Source of the DNA: an uncultured bacterium
Lineage (GTDB): Bacteria; Abyssobacteria; SURF-5
Length of the DNA stretch: 11,017 nt
Assembly (NCBI GenBank): GCA_964510165.1
Contig: CAZEBC010000135.1
Coordinates: forward strand, 1-11,017
Direction of reading: 5' to 3'
Position numbers and translations under genes: made by a program. The notes beneath the pieces were generated by a model. It was not told the DNA's origin. It saw only the letters and a list, made by a program, of their open reading frames with translations, and did not search any database. Shown piece after piece: positions 6,278 to 11,017 of this stretch. Positions within the stretch are counted from its first letter, which is position 1. Every line of letters begins with the position of its first letter.

Positions 6278-6350
6278 TTCATGAATTATAGTCAGTTTAT
6301 GAACAACGTTAATTTTTCTCTTGACTTTTAGGCAAGCTTTCGTATACAGT
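6278..6350 (+). promoter_or_regulatory. Promoter of the four-gene operon with upstream palindromic operator candidate
   Basis: TTGACT (6321-6326) with TATACA (6343-6348, 16-nt spacer) or TACAGT (6345-6350, 18-nt spacer); AT-rich upstream. Imperfect inverted repeat TTCATGAATT-atagtc-AGTTTATGAA (6278-6303). Confidence 0.5.
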
Positions 6351-6507
6351 AGTCCCAGCGCTCACGCCTCCTATTCCGGCGCCAGTGATAGAAACGATCA
6401 CATGGCCGCCCGATTCGTGCAGCGCTTACGCCATAGGCCAGATGCTGGCTAATCGCCCCGTATGAAAACCTCTGCCGTATCCGAAACGGCCAGAAAGGAT
6501 GCCCGAT

Positions 6508-7635
6508 ATGCAAGCCTTCAAGGCGCTCGCTGAAGCCGCCGACACAAGGCACAACCGCTTCGTTCATGACTGGAAAGCACAAGGGAAAAAGGCCGTCGGC
6601 TACGTGTGCACGTACATGCCCGAGGAGATTCTCTTCGCCGCCGATATCCTCCCCTATCGCATTACCGGCAAAAGCGTTACGGACACCTCCCGCGCCGATT
6701 CCTACCTCACCCGGGTGAATTGCACATTTTCCCGATGTTGTCTCGAAGTCGGCATGAGCGGCGGATTCGACTTCCTGGATGGCGCGGCGTTCGTCAACGG
6801 CTGCGACCATATACGCCGGGCATACGACAACTGGAAAGCGCACGAAAGCGCGCTCCCGTTCATGTACATCCTCCCCGTCCCGCACGTCCTGAGCGACGAC
6901 GGCCTCCAATGGTACAAGGAGGAAGTTGTCAAGCTCAAGGAATCTGTCGAGGAGCATTTCGCCGTGACCATCACGGAGAAGAACCTGAAGGAAGCCATAA
7001 AGACATACAACGAAACCAGATCGCTCCTGAAACAGATGTACGATTTGAGGGCCGCTGACCAGCCCGCACTCACCGGCGCCGAGACGATGACCGTCCTGGC
7101 CGCCGCAAGCTCGATGCCCAAACCCCAATTTAACAAGCTCTTAAGACAACTGCTCGACGAGGCGCAGAAGAGAAAGAAAGCGCCGCCGCCAAAATTCCGC
7201 CTGCTCGTCGCCGGCAGCATGATGGACGAGCCGCAGTTCCTCGCCAACGTCGAGGAACTCGGGGCGACAGTCGTCGCCGACGCGCTCTGCTTCGGCGCGC
7301 GCAGTTTCTGGGACCTGACCGAGGAGAACGGCGACCCCTTCGACGCGCTCGTCCGGCGCTACTACTATCATGTGCCGTGCCCCCGCATGGCTGGCCAGTA
7401 CGGCAGACGACGGGCGTTCGTCATGGAGCAGGCCGAGCACGCCAATGTGGACGGCGCGATCCTCGAGCACATCAAGTTCTGCGATATCCACGGCACGGAC
7501 AACGCCCTGTTGAAGGGAGACCTTGAGAAGGCGGGCATCCCCGCAATCGAACTCGAGCGCCAATACGGGCCGCTCGCCGACGCGGGCAGAATCCGCACTC
7601 GTATTCAGGCATTCCTGGAAAGGATTCGGAGATAG
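6508..7635 (+). CDS. HAD/BCR-family Fe-S subunit (HgdB/BcrC/BzdN-like), six-Cys double-cubane-type pattern
   Basis: WKAQGKKAVGYVCTYMPEEIL.AA.ILPYR, ADSYL..NC.FSR, FLDG..FVNGCDHIRR, DALCFGAR, VPCPR, VDGAI...KFCD.HG, GRIRTRIQAFLE. ATG 6508 has AAAGGA 8 nt upstream (track start is 6499). Confidence 0.88.
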   Translation: MQAFKALAEAADTRHNRFVHDWKAQGKKAVGYVCTYMPEEILFAADILPYRITGKSVTDTSRADSYLTRVNCTFSRCCLEVGMSGGFDFLDGAAFVNGCDHIRRAYDNWKAHESALPFMYILPVPHVLSDDGLQWYKEEVVKLKESVEEHFAVTITEKNLKEAIKTYNETRSLLKQMYDLRAADQPALTGAETMTVLAAASSMPKPQFNKLLRQLLDEAQKRKKAPPPKFRLLVAGSMMDEPQFLANVEELGATVVADALCFGARSFWDLTEENGDPFDALVRRYYYHVPCPRMAGQYGRRRAFVMEQAEHANVDGAILEHIKFCDIHGTDNALLKGDLEKAGIPAIELERQYGPLADAGRIRTRIQAFLERIRR

Positions 7636-7638
7636 ACC

Positions 7639-8997
7639 ATGACTGAAACCAACGCGCTCCAACGAATGGTCGATGCCTTCACGCAAGGCTCCATGCTGCC
7701 GGAGGACCTGGACCTCGATTCGCCCGAGATGCAGGCCATCCTCGCCATGCTGCCCGAAGCCCGCAAAAACATGGTCCTCGCGATGGCGAAAGACCCCGAC
7801 GTGCGGAAAATGTCCGCCGTCTTCAACCGAAACCAGGGCAAGTTCTGGCAGAGCGTGCTCTCCGCCAAGGACCAAGGAAAGAAAATTGTATTTCTCCCAT
7901 TCAATTTCTCTCCCGAGATTTTCCACGCAATGGACATGGTGCCCGTCTGCGTCGAGGTGTTAACCACTATGGCGCTCACCCTCGAGGAGGGTGTCGAGCC
8001 GTACCTTGACCTCGCCGTCGAACGCGGCCTGCCCGACACGATGTGCTCGGCCCAGCGCGGCGTCGTCGGCCTGTTCGAGGCCGGCATCCTCGATAAGCCC
8101 GACCTCCTCGTCAACGGCGCGCTCGGCGGTTGCGACCCCAACTCGAAAGCCTTCGAGTATATGGCCGAGAAATTCGACATCCCAGTCCTCTATCTCGACC
8201 TGCCGTATTACCATGACAAGCGCGCAATCGGTTACTACGCGAAGGGCTTCCGCAAAGTGGTCGAGGCCCTCGAGGAAATTAATGGCCGAAAACTCGATCC
8301 CGACCGCCTTCGCGAGGTGGTCAACCAGACCAACAAGGCCACCGAACTCTTCATGGAGATCAACGAACTCAAACGGCACGTGCCGAACCCCGTTCCGAAT
8401 TACTACAACATCCATCATACCGGCACGAAGCTGATGATGGCCGGCACGCCCGACGCGGTCGACTACTACCAGACTGCATACGATATCAGCAAGCAGCGCC
8501 TCAAACAAGGCAAGCACGTGATGCCGGAGGAACGCATCCGCGTCTTCTTCATGTACACAGGCTACTATTTCGACAACTCCATCTTCTCATGGTTCCAGGA
8601 GGAGATGGGCGCCACATACGTGATGGACGTGTTGAATGCGTTCGATTTCAATCCCATCGTTGACACGACAAGCGTGGACACGATGCTCGACGGGCTGTCG
8701 GAAGTAATGTTCAACCTGCCGATGACGCGCCAACTCAAGGGCAGTTGGAACATGGACTCCAACTGGCTCCACGACACGCTCTATTACGCGCGCACCTACA
8801 AGGCCGACTGCTGCGTGTTCACCGGGCACACCGCCTGCAAGCAGGCCTGGGGCGTGTACCGGCTCGTCGCCGACGAGGTCAAGAAACAGCTTGGCATTCC
8901 TTCGCTCCGGCTCGAGGGCGACGGCTGGGATTCTCGCATCACCCCCATGTCCGTCATCAAGGAACAATTCGAGGAATTCTTCGCAACGATCTTATAG
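7639..8997 (+). CDS. HAD/BCR-family catalytic Fe-S subunit (HgdA/BcrB/BzdO-like)
   Basis: 452 aa. PEIFHAMD.VP..VE, GLPDTMCSAQRG, PDLLV....GCD..SK.FE, IPVLYLDLPY, GHTACKQ, LGIPSLRLEGD..DSR. Starts 3 nt after the upstream stop with GGAG RBS. Confidence 0.86.
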   Translation: MTETNALQRMVDAFTQGSMLPEDLDLDSPEMQAILAMLPEARKNMVLAMAKDPDVRKMSAVFNRNQGKFWQSVLSAKDQGKKIVFLPFNFSPEIFHAMDMVPVCVEVLTTMALTLEEGVEPYLDLAVERGLPDTMCSAQRGVVGLFEAGILDKPDLLVNGALGGCDPNSKAFEYMAEKFDIPVLYLDLPYYHDKRAIGYYAKGFRKVVEALEEINGRKLDPDRLREVVNQTNKATELFMEINELKRHVPNPVPNYYNIHHTGTKLMMAGTPDAVDYYQTAYDISKQRLKQGKHVMPEERIRVFFMYTGYYFDNSIFSWFQEEMGATYVMDVLNAFDFNPIVDTTSVDTMLDGLSEVMFNLPMTRQLKGSWNMDSNWLHDTLYYARTYKADCCVFTGHTACKQAWGVYRLVADEVKKQLGIPSLRLEGDGWDSRITPMSVIKEQFEEFFATIL

Positions 8998-9009
8998 GAT
9001 GATGCAATC

Positions 9010-9795
9010 ATGATTGTAGCTGGATGCGATGTAGGCTCATTGACCGCAGAAGCCGTCATCATGAACAACGGCACGATACTCGCCTCCGAGATCATCCGGG
9101 TCCGGCCCACGGCTGAGCAATCGGCCAGGGATGTGATGGACCGGGCGCTCTCGCGGCTCGGCATCTCGTACGGCGATATCAATTACTGCGTCAGCACGGG
9201 GTACGGTCGCGAGACGATCCCGTTCGCCAACGACAACATCAGCGAAATATCGTGCCACGGCCGCGGCGCCCAATGGCTGATCCCGTCGGTCCGAACTGTC
9301 ATAGACATCGGCGGGCAGGATTGCAAGGCGATACGAGTGGACGGCGGCGGGCTGCTCGAGGATTTCGTAATGAACGACAAATGCGCCGCCGGCACCGGGC
9401 GCTCGCTCGAACTCATGGCCGAGGCGCTCGGCGTTGACATCTCGGAACTCGGGCCGCTCTCGCTCCAGGCCTCAAGCCCCGTCGTTATCACCAATCAGTG
9501 CAGCATCTTCGCAGAAATGGAAATCCTTCATTACATGTGCGAGGAGAGGAGCATCTCCGACATCGCGGCAGGAATCAACGAGTCAATGGCCCGCCGGGTT
9601 AAGATGCTTGTGGGCAGAGTCGGCATCAAGAAAGAAGTCGGCATGACGGGCGGCGTTTCCAAAAATGTCGGCGTCGTCAAGTTCCTGGAGAAAATGCTCG
9701 GCGCGAATTTCGTCCAGTTCCCCGTGGACCCGCAGATCATAGGCGCGCTCGGCGCCGCCATCTTCGCCGGCGAAAAAGCAAGAAAGGTCGCTTGA
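9010..9795 (+). CDS. ASKHA-type [4Fe-4S] ATPase activator 1 (HgdC/BcrA/BzdQ-like)
   Basis: 261 aa. GCDVGSLT, STGYGR, EISCHGRG, VIDIGGQDCK, MNDKCAAGTGR (C125), QCSIFAE (C164), MTGGVSKN, PQIIGALGAA. Confidence 0.93.
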   Translation: MIVAGCDVGSLTAEAVIMNNGTILASEIIRVRPTAEQSARDVMDRALSRLGISYGDINYCVSTGYGRETIPFANDNISEISCHGRGAQWLIPSVRTVIDIGGQDCKAIRVDGGGLLEDFVMNDKCAAGTGRSLELMAEALGVDISELGPLSLQASSPVVITNQCSIFAEMEILHYMCEERSISDIAAGINESMARRVKMLVGRVGIKKEVGMTGGVSKNVGVVKFLEKMLGANFVQFPVDPQIIGALGAAIFAGEKARKVA

Positions 9796-9828
9796 CATTC
9801 GCGTAATTCGTTGAATTCGTGACATTCG
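9793..9828 (+). repeat. 4 x 9-bp imperfect tandem repeat (NNNNATTCG)
   Basis: tgacattcg / cgtaattcg / ttgaattcg / tgacattcg; ATTCG at 9797, 9806, 9815 and 9824; first and last units identical. Confidence 0.7.
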
Positions 9829-9862
9829 TCATCCAAATCTCTGATACGCCAAGGAGCTCATA

Positions 9863-10642
9863 ATGATCTACGCCGGATGTGATCTCGGCGCCGTCGCAGC
9901 AAAGCTGGCGCTCACTCAAGACGGTACCATCCTCGCCTGCGAGACGCTCGCGTATCGCAACCTCCCAAAACAAGCCTCCGCAAGCGTGCTGGAGGCGGCG
10001 CTCCGCAAAGCCGGAGTCAAGCGTGACGACATCGCCCATTGCGTCGCCACCGGTTTTGGAAGAAAGCGCGTGGACTACGCACAGGCGGACGTGCCTGAAG
10101 TGATGTGCCTCAGCCGCGCCATCCGACATCTCGCTCCCGCTGTCCGCACCGTCATCGACGTCGGCGGCCAGAGCATCCGCGCATTTAATCTCGGCGAGAA
10201 TGGAAAGATCACTGACTCCACAAACAACGAGAAGTGTGCCGCCGGAACCGGAAAATTCATCGAGGTGATGGCCAAGGCGCTCGAGTTACCGCTCGACCGG
10301 CTCGGCGAACTCGCGCTCGCCTCGAAAGAACCCGTCTCCATCACGAGCCAGTGCGGAGTGTTCGCCGAAAGCGAAGTGATTACCTATGTCAACAAGGGCA
10401 GGGACCGCGCCGACATCATCGCCGGCATCAACCGCTCCGTCGCCGGTAAGACGGCCTCGCTCGTGAGACGGATCAGCCTGACCGAAAAAGTCGCGCTCGT
10501 CGGCGGAGTCGCCAAAAACGCCGGAGTTGTCCGCGACCTCCAACAAGAGCTCGGCATACGCCTGGCCGCGCTCGAGGTTGACCCTCAGCTTGTGGCCGCG
10601 CTTGGCGCCGCCCTCCTCGCCAAGGACAAATCCACTCGGTGA
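9863..10642 (+). CDS. ASKHA-type [4Fe-4S] ATPase activator 2, divergent (BcrD/BzdP-like role)
   Basis: 259 aa. GCDLGAVAAK, ATGFGR, VIDVGGQSIR, NNEKCAAGTGK (C125), QCGVFAESEVI (C164), LVGGVAKN, PQLVAALGAA. AAGGAG RBS. Confidence 0.92.
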   Translation: MIYAGCDLGAVAAKLALTQDGTILACETLAYRNLPKQASASVLEAALRKAGVKRDDIAHCVATGFGRKRVDYAQADVPEVMCLSRAIRHLAPAVRTVIDVGGQSIRAFNLGENGKITDSTNNEKCAAGTGKFIEVMAKALELPLDRLGELALASKEPVSITSQCGVFAESEVITYVNKGRDRADIIAGINRSVAGKTASLVRRISLTEKVALVGGVAKNAGVVRDLQQELGIRLAALEVDPQLVAALGAALLAKDKSTR

Positions 10643-10738: not shown

Positions 10739-11017
10739 AGCTCCTCACAAGAATTTGTGGGTAGTTTTTCATCAGAATCCGAGGATTTAGTCAAGGATGA
10801 AACCCCGTAAGGGGCGGCCTGAAAGGCCGTCCTTGACGAAATCTCCGAGGATTCTGCTAACATTCTGAAAGGGAAGAAGGAAGAAATGGCGCAGAGACTT
10901 CCCAATTTGGCGAGAAGCTGGAACTGTCCTACCCGCTCAGAATACATAGACCAATACATTTCTTCCTTCTTCCTCAATAACCCTTTGATAATAAATAACT
11001 TACAAACCAAAAAAGGC
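10739..11017 (+). mobile_element. Probable terminal non-coding region of an insertion sequence (ISL3-like), continuing beyond the window
   Basis: AGCTCCTCACAAGAATTTGTGGGTAG resembles ISL3 terminal repeats as I recall them (GGYTCWTC...GTGG), preceded by an AT-rich 8-mer AAAAATAA. It is followed by nested inverted repeats, a TTGACG/TGcTAACAT promoter candidate, an IHF consensus and a drop in GC content. No transposase is visible in the window. Confidence 0.4.

Follow-up and report, generated by a model that had tools for sequence, protein, structure and literature searches.

A four-gene BCR/HAD-superfamily cassette encoding a pair of Fe-S subunits and two different ATPases: a candidate ATP-driven low-potential reductase

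Introduction

Does the gene set at positions 6508 to 10642 encode a dehydratase or an ATP-driven reductase? The window, i.e., the whole 11,017-nt stretch of DNA analysed here, carries at this place four tightly spaced ORFs on the forward strand, two for HGD-D Fe-S subunits (beta and alpha) and two for BcrAD_BadFG ATPases (A1 and A2). The initial annotation favored a reductase-type complex and expected that automated annotation would call it a dehydratase. Public records do label the relatives "2-hydroxyacyl-CoA dehydratase".

Results and Discussion

Gene organization and surroundings

The Pfam scores of all four ORFs were far beyond chance (Table 1), and the intergenic gaps in the order beta, alpha, A1, A2 were 3, 12, and 67 nt. 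The proposed tight operon of two Fe-S subunits and two different ATPases of about 260 aa is therefore confirmed. Shine-Dalgarno-like motifs were found at every start, i.e., AAAGGA 8 nt 5' of the ATG at 6508, GGAG (7639), AGGA (9010), and AAGGAG (9863). An alternative ATG of beta at 6499 would give 378 aa. The start at 6508 is likelier because the ribosome-binding site overlaps 6499 and the 375-aa orthologues start at the aligned Met.

Table 1. Coordinates of the features of the cassette and its flanks
Feature	Position	Strand	Evidence
Beta-type Fe-S subunit, BzdN-like, 375 aa	6508..7635	+	Pfam HGD-D, E 1.4e-93
Alpha-type catalytic subunit (predicted), 452 aa	7639..8997	+	Pfam HGD-D, E 2.4e-57
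ATPase A1, ASKHA-type electron activator subunit, 261 aa	9010..9795	+	Pfam BcrAD_BadFG, E 4.6e-59
ATPase A2, second, more divergent ATPase subunit, 259 aa	9863..10642	+	Pfam BcrAD_BadFG, E 3.6e-47
Sigma-70-like promoter candidate, TTGACT-18-TACAGT	6321..6350	+	9/12 matches; in the gap 3' of ccsB
Terminator-like hairpin with T-rich tail	10744..10761	+	7-pair stem, then TAGTTTTTCA; 100 nt past the A2 stop

A non-coding gap of 432 nt (441 nt when counted to the preferred start at 6508) separates ccsB from the operon. The operon was suggested to have its own promoter, but the candidate in this gap is not significant: sigma-70-like sites were not above chance, with 3 in the scanned region versus 1.7 ± 1.4 in shuffles. 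The upstream regions of orthologous loci gave no alignment. Terminator-like sites were not enriched either (6 in the region versus 5.7 ± 2.3 in shuffles).

The upstream genes in the window are a GH4 fragment, lipoamide dehydrogenase, polyprenyl synthase, ResB, and CcsB. Among the 20 window ORFs of at least 60 aa that were scanned (12 + 8), there was no CoA ligase or transferase, ferredoxin, acyl-CoA dehydrogenase, ETF, or Dch/Had/Oah gene, as initially described.

Related loci

Comparison of gene neighbourhoods, proposed in the initial annotation, showed a conserved cassette without conserved pathway genes. The four genes were found in unchanged order in 4/4 complete related loci (L001, L002, L003, and L005); L004 was left out of this count, as its contig end falls inside alpha. 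These loci are from Abyssobacteria and Desulfobacterota-type genomes, and no flanking gene is common to them and the window, so the four genes are considered a conserved unit. The match lists of alpha and A2 apparently have at least 15 contigs in common, and similar uncharacterised gene sets are common.

The five related loci have no ferredoxin, CoA ligase, or downstream pathway gene in common. However, an acyl-CoA dehydrogenase gene lies divergently upstream of the cassette in two of the five (L004 and L005), and the two products are orthologous, with 68.7% identity. The term "orphan" thus holds for the window, but not for these two loci. Because of this adjoining gene, the substrate is probably a CoA thioester (acyl-CoA).

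Beta subunit

The top NCBIfam match of beta was the DCCP model with 202 bits, yet below its cut-off (350), followed by BzdN with 189 (454), HadC with 169 (700), and BcrC with 129 (421). Against PDB, the single sequence scored 194 bits with BzdN, 128 with HadC, 108 with DCCP, and 97 with MbdN, and a profile of 6 orthologues scored 221, 167, 130, and 119 bits, respectively. By these scores, BzdN is the nearest of the solved relatives.

Six Cys of beta, at positions 37, 75, 102, 264, 294, and 328 when counted from 6499, have a Cys counterpart in BzdN as well as in DCCP and are kept in 6/6 orthologues. In the same alignment, HadC has Cys at 4/6 and MbdN at 3/6 of these columns. The equivalents of BzdN Arg53, Arg267, and His330 are also kept, and Arg290 is replaced by His. 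BzdN and DCCP carry [8Fe-9S] on six Cys, whereas HAD has lost it (PMC11971306). Beta is accordingly predicted to hold an [8Fe-9S] double cubane on its six Cys.

The beta subunit could also belong to a DCCP-like enzyme that reduces a small, non-CoA molecule, with the double cubane as active site and alpha as a structural or electron-transfer partner. The top NCBIfam match, the six shared Cys columns, the window without any CoA-metabolism gene, and the Cys-Asp that follows the second ligand in both alpha and DCCP are in line with this. However, real DCCPs score 530-532 bits on the model, the beta profile is nearer to BzdN than to DCCP, and DCCP and its reductase are both homodimers (PMC9351452), whereas here two different Fe-S subunits and two ATPases are encoded. 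The adjoining acyl-CoA dehydrogenase and the invariance of the alpha Cys and Glu site described below, as would be expected of an active site, also speak against such an enzyme, and we consider it quite improbable.

Alpha subunit

The NCBIfam scores of alpha were 69 for BcrB (cut-off 487), 67 for DCCP (350), 59.5 for HadB (750), and 35 for BzdO (449), and a profile of 60 relatives scored 163 bits with HadB, 159.5 with BzdO, 124 with MbdO, and 117 with DCCP in PDB. The AlphaFold2 model (pLDDT 93.6) gave Foldseek TM(query) values of 0.73-0.75 to HadB, MbdO, DCCP, and BzdO alike; the top match was HadB (E 2e-17, TM(target) 0.83), and BzdO had E 2e-13 and TM(target) 0.78. Alpha is equally far from all four by sequence and fold, and it is no nearer to the reductases than to a dehydratase.

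C136, C165, and C400 of alpha align with BzdO Cys95, Cys128, and Cys380, and E106 with Glu65. The three Cys are each kept in 78/78 family members and E106 in 76/78, and together they are predicted to form a [4Fe-4S] site with one open iron.

The surrounding residues are different. BzdO His131, Tyr97, Tyr298, and Gln274 correspond to Asn168, Ala138, Leu332, and Thr307, i.e., alpha lacks the His and the three thioester-binding residues of BzdO. Of six alignable active-site or thioester-binding residues, four are replaced and only Glu65 is kept; the equivalent of Trp46 is Phe in about half of the alpha family. The residue after the third Cys is Lys in alpha and HadB, and Glu381 in BzdO. Identity between alpha and BzdO was only 16% in the structural alignment. 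By these aligned residues, the substrate pocket differs from that of BzdO, and the substrate is very probably not benzoyl-CoA. Birch-type arene reduction, suggested as one activity of the enzyme, found no specific support here, since His131, Tyr97, Tyr298, and Gln274 are all replaced.

An ordinary BZD-type benzoyl-CoA reductase, i.e., an orthologue of BzdNOPQ, would have the same gene order of N-like, O-like, and two short ATPase genes, and BzdN is indeed the best solved relative of beta. However, this assignment is extremely unlikely with the pocket replacements, with no bzd pathway gene or ferredoxin nearby, and with scores of 189/454 (beta), 35/449 (alpha), and 211 and 160 against a cut-off of 380 (the two ATPases on the Bzd equivalogs).

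A HAD-type radical dehydratase, or another redox-neutral ketyl-radical enzyme, has more in its favor. In such an enzyme the ATPase module would inject one electron, which would be reused in many turnovers, and the substrate would be a hydroxyacyl-CoA. HadB is narrowly the best solved relative of alpha and its top structural match, the two have in common the three-Cys site, the Glu (Glu55 in HadB, counted from the alignment), and the Cys-Lys pair, and relatives are so named in public records. However, HgdA and HgdB of Fusobacterium, a true HAD, reached 439 bits with the HadB model and 339 with the HadC model, respectively, compared with 59.5 for alpha and 169 for beta. Beta keeps the six Cys, of which HadC lacks two, and the ATPases are two conserved and differentiated proteins. 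In addition, no 2-hydroxyacid dehydrogenase or CoA transferase was found in the window or in L001-L005. A dehydratase is regarded as unlikely.

ATPase subunits

A1 and A2 are 42% identical. A1 scored 244 bits on TIGR00241, above the cut-off of 125. In PDB, the scores of A1 were HadI 226, MbdQ 217, HgdC 188, and MbdP 134 bits, and those of A2 were 198, 195.5, 176.5, and 124 bits, respectively. For both, HadI is the top-scoring solved protein; HAD has one activator gene, whose product is a homodimer. The BcrA model (432 positions) does not begin to match A1 and A2 until about position 224. The long N-terminal extension of Thauera-type BcrA is accordingly absent from both, as had been noted from the sequence.

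Both proteins keep the two cluster Cys, and each has a fixed motif change: phosphate motif 1 of A1 has Glu in place of Lys, and in A2 the Asp that follows GGQ is replaced by Ser. Among the best 120 relatives of A1, both cluster-Cys motifs and GGQD were present in 120/120, and DxGSLxxE replaced the usual DxGSTxxK in 117/120. Among the best 120 relatives of A2, GGQS was found in 102, GGQD in none, and both Cys motifs in 105. Across five genomes the two proteins formed two separate clades (support 100/98 and 100/100), each a conserved orthologue group of its own. These clades are sisters in the tree, and both proteins are nearer to MbdQ and HadI than to MbdP; the pair therefore seems to have arisen by a duplication of its own and not to correspond to the P/Q pair of BCR. 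The motif asymmetry is consistent with A1 and A2 being non-equivalent protomers of one dimer, by analogy with MbdP/MbdQ, where MbdP has GGQT in place of the GGQS of A2.

Alternatively, whatever the reaction, A1 and A2 could each be the homodimeric activator of a different catalytic module, one of alpha-beta and the other of a paralogous pair elsewhere. [quoted passage not shown] However, the window and 4/4 complete loci each have A1 and A2 next to one alpha-beta pair, no second pair was found in the window, L002, or L005 within the sequence covered, and the second set of L003 carries its own single ATPase. With the fixed motif differences, which suit one dimer, separate homodimers seem very unlikely.

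Class assignment and proposed mechanism

None of the four subunits reached the NCBIfam equivalog cut-offs for BCR, HAD, or DCCP. The enzyme is thus not an orthologue of a characterised one, and it is a BCR/HAD-superfamily member in which two Fe-S subunits are combined with two different ATPases, both as initially proposed; it was placed relative to the Bzd, Bcr, Mbd, and Thn proteins by HMM and PDB scores.

The reductase-type complex of the initial annotation is the likelier reading, on the basis of two distinct ATPases, a six-Cys beta, and no characterised orthologue. The four-gene, two-ATPase set, which had been taken as a mark of reductases, is a weak argument by itself, because it also occurs with a three-Cys beta (L006-L008 and a Rhizobium plasmid). 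Conversely, the second set of L003 and DCCP combine a six-Cys beta with only one ATPase. The two marks are separable, and neither is diagnostic alone.

We propose, with about even confidence, a low-potential reductase of BZD architecture that would be driven by ATP and would act on a non-benzoyl substrate. A1 and A2 would form a heterodimeric ASKHA ATPase with one [4Fe-4S] between the subunits, held by two Cys from each. This cluster would be reduced by a ferredoxin or flavodoxin encoded elsewhere, and ATP binding and hydrolysis would drive an electron uphill from it to beta, where the double cubane on the six Cys may act as a relay and perhaps as electron storage. From beta, the electron would reach the [4Fe-4S] of alpha on Cys136, 165, and 400, whose free iron would face the substrate pocket beside Glu106. 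The bound substrate would be reduced at this cluster, with Glu106 participating in proton transfer. The direction and stoichiometry of this electron flow are predicted, as is net reduction in place of dehydration.

Comparison with known systems

Like the window cassette, BzdNOPQ of CIB (PDB 8S02; PMC11971306) is a four-gene set that combines two HGD-D subunits with two short ATPases. The six Cys of BzdN for [8Fe-9S] and the three Cys and Glu of BzdO at aligned positions are further similarities. The differences are the four BzdO pocket replacements and Glu381 to Lys in alpha, the absence of bzd pathway and ferredoxin genes near the window cassette, and the hosts, since the named hosts of window relatives belong to strict-anaerobe lineages.

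The (R)-2-hydroxyisocaproyl-CoA dehydratase HadBC with HadI of Clostridioides difficile (PDB 3O3M, 4EHT) has the subunit that is, among solved relatives, marginally nearest to alpha. HAD catalyses redox-neutral dehydration with catalytic ATP (PMC11971306).

DCCP and DCCP-R of Carboxydothermus hydrogenoformans (PDB 6ENO, 7YYL), like E. coli YjiM/YjiL, share the six-Cys [8Fe-9S] signature with beta, and the system is an ATP-driven low-potential reductase, as is proposed for the window enzyme. Its known substrates are small molecules, not CoA esters (PMC11971306).

The 3-methylbenzoyl-CoA reductase MbdONQP of Thauera chlorobenzoica (PDB 9G87, 9GAI) is a heterotetramer with two different ATPases. 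MbdP, a protomer of this solved complex, lacks the Asp after GGQ like A2. Among solved proteins, MbdQ ranks second for A1 as well as for A2. By the scores above, the two window ATPases both resemble the Q-type subunit, so the pair is not orthologous to P/Q, and MbdN differs from beta in the Cys columns.

The Thn enzyme of sulfate-reducing Deltaproteobacteria is described as a Bzd-like four-gene ATP-dependent reductase, and the likeness to the window is by this description (PMC12016498). Its genes belong to a thn operon of 22 genes that also includes ferredoxin and beta-oxidation genes, a context that the window cassette does not have. The Thn enzyme is a precedent for such reductases acting in strict anaerobes on a non-benzoyl CoA ester.

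Organization of the cassette and its flanking DNA

The cassette consists of four ORFs, i.e., the Fe-S subunit genes β and α and the ATPase genes A1 and A2, and a Shine-Dalgarno-like motif was found ahead of every one of them. The set has the features of the BCR/HAD superfamily (benzoyl-CoA reductases and 2-hydroxyacyl-CoA dehydratases), i.e., adjoining genes for HGD-D-fold Fe-S subunits, which matched Pfam PF06050 at E 1.4e-93 (β) and 2.4e-57 (α), and ASKHA ATPases with two Cys per protomer. The initial annotation had described a four-gene operon with its own promoter. The four-ORF set was confirmed, but the promoter was not; the sigma-70-like match in the non-coding gap 5' of the operon (432 nt, or 441 nt to the preferred start of β) did not exceed shuffle expectation.

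Features of the window and of the related loci discussed in the text
Feature	Position	Strand	Description
Four-ORF operon	window 6508-10642	+	spacers 3, 12 and 67 nt
β	window 6508-7635	+	HGD-D protein, 375 aa (378 aa from alternative ATG at 6499)
α	window 7639-8997	+	HGD-D protein, 452 aa
A1	window 9010-9795	+	BcrAD_BadFG ATPase, 261 aa
A2	window 9863-10642	+	BcrAD_BadFG ATPase, 259 aa
Sigma-70-like match	window 6321-6350	+	9/12; sole + strand match in the gap
Terminator-like hairpin	window 10744-10761		3' of the operon
5'-open ORF	window 1-300		matches only positions 73-133 of the 183-position GH4 N-terminal domain
Head-to-tail repeat	window 9797-9829		in the A1-A2 spacer
Hairpin and inverted repeat	window 10773-10856 / 10872-10973		downstream of the operon
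Second catalytic pair	L001:6024-8750		Candidatus Abyssobacteria SURF_17
Second set	L003:13508-17675		Desulfobacteraceae MAG
Genes upstream of the cassette	L005:465-5810		
CoA mutase cluster	L006, L007, L008, about 800-16500		Desulfonema limicola and two Pseudomonadota-labelled MAGs
Activase, ATPase-β fusion, α	L014:7124-11315		Azoarcus sp. KH32C plasmid pAZKH
α, three-Cys β, two activases	L015:7634-13062		Rhizobium leguminosarum plasmid NZ_CP030763.1

The same-strand genes upstream of the operon encode a GH4 fragment, lipoamide dehydrogenase, polyprenyl diphosphate synthase, ResB and CcsB. As the initial annotation had stated, no CoA ligase/transferase, ferredoxin, acyl-CoA dehydrogenase or ETF gene was found among the 20 ORFs scanned in the window. 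The upstream regions of six loci, i.e., the window and five related loci (L001-L005), did not align and had two invariant columns. In the same six loci, no Rfam match was obtained at gathering thresholds.

Several other elements were observed. The 5'-open ORF stops 110 nt ahead of the lipoamide dehydrogenase gene and looks like a truncated glycoside-hydrolase remnant. In the A1-A2 spacer, a 9-nt unit (ATTCG plus four bases) is repeated head to tail, which gives three 15-nt copies that overlap at a step of 9 nt; this spacer lacks conservation and varies from 15 to 113 nt among the related loci. Downstream, a long imperfect hairpin has a fold z-score of -4.4 relative to shuffled sequences, and a perfect inverted repeat of 17 nt has its arms separated by 68 nt; this region 3' of the operon contained no ORF with a family match.

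Distribution and conservation of the cassette

The α search gave 146 relatives. About 94 cluster representatives were 53-94% identical, and identity then dropped to 44% and below. The cassette is compact and conserved, with about 80 full-length α orthologues that share at least 53% identity. Of 1.84 billion cluster representatives scanned, 1389 were α relatives at E ≤ 1e-3, and there the α family formed one 50% cluster whose next relative was 41% identical. In the ESM Atlas only generic HGD-D clusters were found, and no NCBIfam model matched at E ≤ 1e-45 the 115 highest-ranked full-length sequences among the best 150 α relatives. Where the sources gave names, the relatives were called '2-hydroxyacyl-CoA dehydratase', 'BcrC/BadD/HgdB' or hypothetical, which includes the dehydratase label that had been expected from automated annotation. 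The named hosts were Candidatus Abyssubacteria/Abyssobacteria, Hydrogenedentota, Deltaproteobacteria, Desulfobacteraceae and 'Proteobacteria' MAGs. No publication on the cassette family was found by keyword search of open-access text, and the Abyssubacteria genome paper had 0 occurrences of 'dehydratase', 'aromatic' or 'benzo'.

A genome scan with α gave 13 loci, five of which belong to the family (L001-L005, 66-79% identity). The order β, α, A1, A2 was kept in all four family loci that are not cut by a contig end. By tblastx of the flanks, and by tblastn of 12 small ORFs without assignment, the window and L001-L005 have no flanking gene in common; what is conserved as a unit is therefore the cassette. 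Co-location of α and A2 on many more contigs is suggested indirectly, since at least 15 contig sizes coincide in their match lists.

L004 and L005 each have an acyl-CoA dehydrogenase gene upstream in divergent orientation. Identity between the copies is 68.7%, and their best models, i.e., acryloyl-CoA reductase AcrC and cyclohexane-1-carbonyl-CoA dehydrogenase, were both below cut-off. Upstream of the L005 cassette there are also genes for a Zn-dependent alcohol dehydrogenase, an Rrf2 regulator and a GltD-like, NAD(P)-binding Fe-S flavoprotein that bears a dicluster ferredoxin domain. This flavoprotein was seen in L005 only and is a possible electron-donor system.

Catalytic subunits

The distance from CHARACTERISED enzymes was judged by NCBIfam equivalog cut-offs, and no cassette subunit reached one.

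NCBIfam scores of the cassette subunits (bits) and equivalog cut-offs; DCCP, double-cubane cluster protein
Model	Cut-off	β	α	A1	A2
BzdN	454	189			
BzdO	449		35		
BzdQ	380			211	160
BcrC	421	129			
BcrB	487		69		
HadC	700	169			
HadB	750		59.5		
DCCP (NF040772)	350	202	67		

The nearest solved relative of β is BzdN, a subunit of the benzoyl-CoA reductase BzdNOPQ. The scores against BzdN and HadC were 194 and 128 bits with the single sequence, and 221 and 167 bits with a six-orthologue profile. At all six columns that are Cys in both BzdN and DCCP, β has Cys as well, i.e., C37, C75, C102, C264, C294 and C328 (counted from 6499), and they are kept in 6/6 orthologues. MbdN of the 3-methylbenzoyl-CoA reductase has three of these columns; C37, C264 and C294 are those missing in single-cubane relatives. 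HadC has four, and β with its six thus differs from the single-cubane ([4Fe-5S]) subunit of HADs. BzdN Arg53, Arg267 and His330 have their equivalents in β, and in place of Arg290 there is His. According to PMC11971306, the six Cys of BzdN hold an [8Fe-9S] double cubane known before only from DCCP; section 12 of that paper describes its loss in HADs and the HAD cluster type, i.e., a single cubane ([4Fe-5S]). From the shared pattern, the six Cys of β are inferred to be cluster ligands, and β would be an N-type subunit of the BZD kind with a predicted double cubane.

The α subunit is equidistant from the characterised branches. Its profile scored 163 bits against HadB, 159.5 against BzdO, 124 against MbdO and 117 against DCCP. 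The AlphaFold2 model (pLDDT 93.6, pTM 0.93) matched the same four structures in Foldseek with TM(query) of 0.73-0.75 and 16-19% identity, and HadB was first by E-value. In a careful tree, the window α family was a 100/100 clade within an unnamed radiation. HgdA was the outermost α in this tree and in a quick joint tree too.

The active site of BzdO is described in PMC11971306. A [4Fe-4S]-OH2 cluster is held by Cys95, Cys128 and Cys380 beside Glu65 and His131, and the thioester oxygen is bound by Tyr97, Tyr298 and Gln274 (section 9). In α, C136, C165 and C400 align with the three ligands, and E106 with Glu65 (HadB Glu55 by count in the alignment). Among full-length family members, the three Cys were found in 78/78 and E106 in 76/78. 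The acid/base partner His131 is replaced by Asn168 (Asn in 77/78 members), and none of the three thioester residues is kept (Tyr97 to Ala138, Tyr298 to Leu332, Gln274 to Thr307). Glu381 is replaced by Lys401, as in HadB. Because these BzdO residues are replaced, the α pocket is not a benzoyl-CoA pocket. A plain benzoyl-CoA reductase would agree with the BzdN-like β; with this pocket it is extremely improbable. Protein searches of a plasmid collection with β and A1 returned no record annotated as benzoyl-CoA reductase.

ATPase subunits

A1 and A2 are 42% identical, and both exceeded the TIGR00241 cut-off of 125 bits, with scores of 244 and 209. [quoted passage not shown] Across five genomes, A1 and A2 formed separate clades (support 100/98 and 100/100). 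These were sisters (94/93) among the 20 ATPases sampled, which contained no BCR ATPase, and the A2 stem was longer. Judged by PDB scores, both resemble MbdQ and HadI more closely than MbdP, so the pair looks like a duplication of its own.

The two types also differ at fixed positions. GGQD was found in all 120 best A1-type relatives, and DxGSLxxE in 117 of them, where HadI, HgdC, MbdQ and MbdP have DxGSTxxK. Among the 120 best A2-type relatives, 102 have GGQS, none has GGQD, eight have another residue, and the pattern was not found in ten. In MbdP, a protomer of a heterotetrameric reductase whose structure is solved, GGQT stands where the A2 type has GGQS. At the sequence level these differences are complementary, and A1 and A2 would form a putative dimer of two different ATPase subunits, which is a BZD feature.

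Related sets of the superfamily

In L001, a second catalytic pair follows 1.5 kb behind the cassette, without ATPase genes to go with it. The pair comprises α' (446 aa) and β' (376 aa), the latter with all six Cys. The pair was the nearest paralogue among the loci in the quick joint tree, where it appeared as sister of the window family. After 14 metagenomic representatives were added, it was not a strict sister of α. One ATPase module may serve two catalytic modules in this locus. The pair also keeps alive an alternative to the heterodimer, i.e., that A1 and A2 are two homodimers serving two modules. Beside the complementary differences of A1 and A2, two homodimers are regarded as very unlikely, and a heterodimer is preferred.

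Directly after the cassette in L003, a separate PadR-regulated set was found, i.e., a six-Cys β (371 aa), α (402 aa), a single ATPase (260 aa) and a 142-aa ORF without family match. L006-L008 share a conserved uncharacterised cluster with large and small CoA mutase subunits, MeaB, a U32/UbiU-like protein, a geranylgeranyl-reductase-like flavoprotein, two ATPases (one degenerate), a three-Cys β and α. In L008, caprolactamase/acetophenone-carboxylase-like subunits and a PaaK-like CoA ligase follow. Unnamed BCR/HAD sets with two ATPase domains each were also found in cultured hosts. The Rhizobium set includes a solute-binding protein, and the Azoarcus fusion protein (685 aa) has six Cys; the latter set lies near an AraC regulator, a YfhL ferredoxin, an acyl-CoA dehydrogenase and an AMP-binding protein.

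These sets combine the features of the cassette differently. A six-Cys β occurs with one ATPase in L003, two ATPases occur with a three-Cys β in L006-L008 and Rhizobium, and in Azoarcus a six-Cys β is fused to one of two ATPase domains. DCCP-R, the reductase of six-Cys DCCP, is described as a homodimer in PMC9351452. Such cases show that heteromeric ATPase modules arose more than once or twice, i.e., several times, and that unnamed sets of this kind are common. The cassette would therefore be no surprise to a specialist, as many such sets exist (three others were seen here). As an unknown it is real, conserved and amenable to experiment, but there are many like it in a superfamily whose uncharted diversity is already expected by specialists.

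Functional reading of the cassette

Few biological routes lead to potentials near -1 V, and ATP-driven electron activation is among them. To our knowledge, only three of its reaction types are understood so far in the superfamily, i.e., arene reduction, 2-hydroxyacyl-CoA dehydration and the small-molecule reductions of DCCP. The cassette joins a BzdN-like six-Cys (predicted double-cubane) subunit to a catalytic subunit outside all characterised branches. Identification of the substrate would add a reaction type and help to annotate a large unnamed clade.

The initial annotation had proposed an ATP-driven reductase. The six-Cys β and the two ATPases point to BZD architecture, as that proposal implied, but neither feature is diagnostic, as the mixed sets and the homodimeric DCCP-R show. 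From the sequences, the chance that the cassette encodes an ATP-driven reductase, with a CoA ester as the probable substrate, is put at about even.

A HAD-like redox-neutral radical enzyme would suit the public names of the relatives and the Lys401 shared with HadB, and it is considered unlikely. In place of the single activator of HADs, two differentiated ATPase genes were found in the window and in 4/4 complete related loci. Fusobacterium HgdA and HgdB, whose genes sit in a glutamate-fermentation context, scored 439 and 339 bits on the HadB and HadC models; from this context and the literature we take them to be true HADs. A small-molecule reductase of the DCCP type would agree with the six Cys of β and is very unlikely. 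On NF040772, the true DCCPs of E. coli (YjiM) and Acetoanaerobium scored 532 and 530 bits. In the DCCP plan, a single gene encodes the homodimeric catalytic component and another single gene the reductase, and the cassette has two different Fe-S subunits and two ATPases. Because HgdA/HgdB and the true DCCPs score far higher, the window enzyme lies well outside both clades.

For the reductase, a joint reading is put forward as possible but rather doubtful. The cassette would represent a fourth functional BCR/HAD branch, i.e., an ATP-spending, double-cubane-fed reductase with an independently evolved heterodimeric ATPase, acting on a non-aromatic or unusual CoA thioester. One candidate substrate would be an acyl-CoA that is alicyclic or unactivated in some other way and that has a link to the acyl-CoA dehydrogenase encoded nearby. 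A single ATPase module might work with more than one pair of catalytic subunits, as suggested by the additional pair in L001 that lacks ATPase genes. The hosts would be energy-limited, strictly anaerobic subsurface groups (Abyssubacteria, Desulfobacterota-type), in which ATP-consuming reductions are thought to be disfavoured. ATP spent on reduction is energetically costly in the host lineages (compare PMC5736913).

Comparison with known reductases

The only reference sequences found for a tree were HAD (Fusobacterium hgdCAB) and DCCP (E. coli yjiM, Acetoanaerobium), so the placement relative to BCRs such as BzdNOPQ, BcrCBAD and MbdONQP rests on HMM, PDB and Foldseek scores. All BZD scores fell below the equivalog cut-offs. 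The cassette thus departs from BZD-type class I reductases in sequence and pocket; it is built like one of them and would work like one. A precedent is ThnBCDE of sulfate reducers, which PMC12016498 describes as a Bzd-like reductase that depends on ATP and acts on a CoA ester other than benzoyl-CoA.
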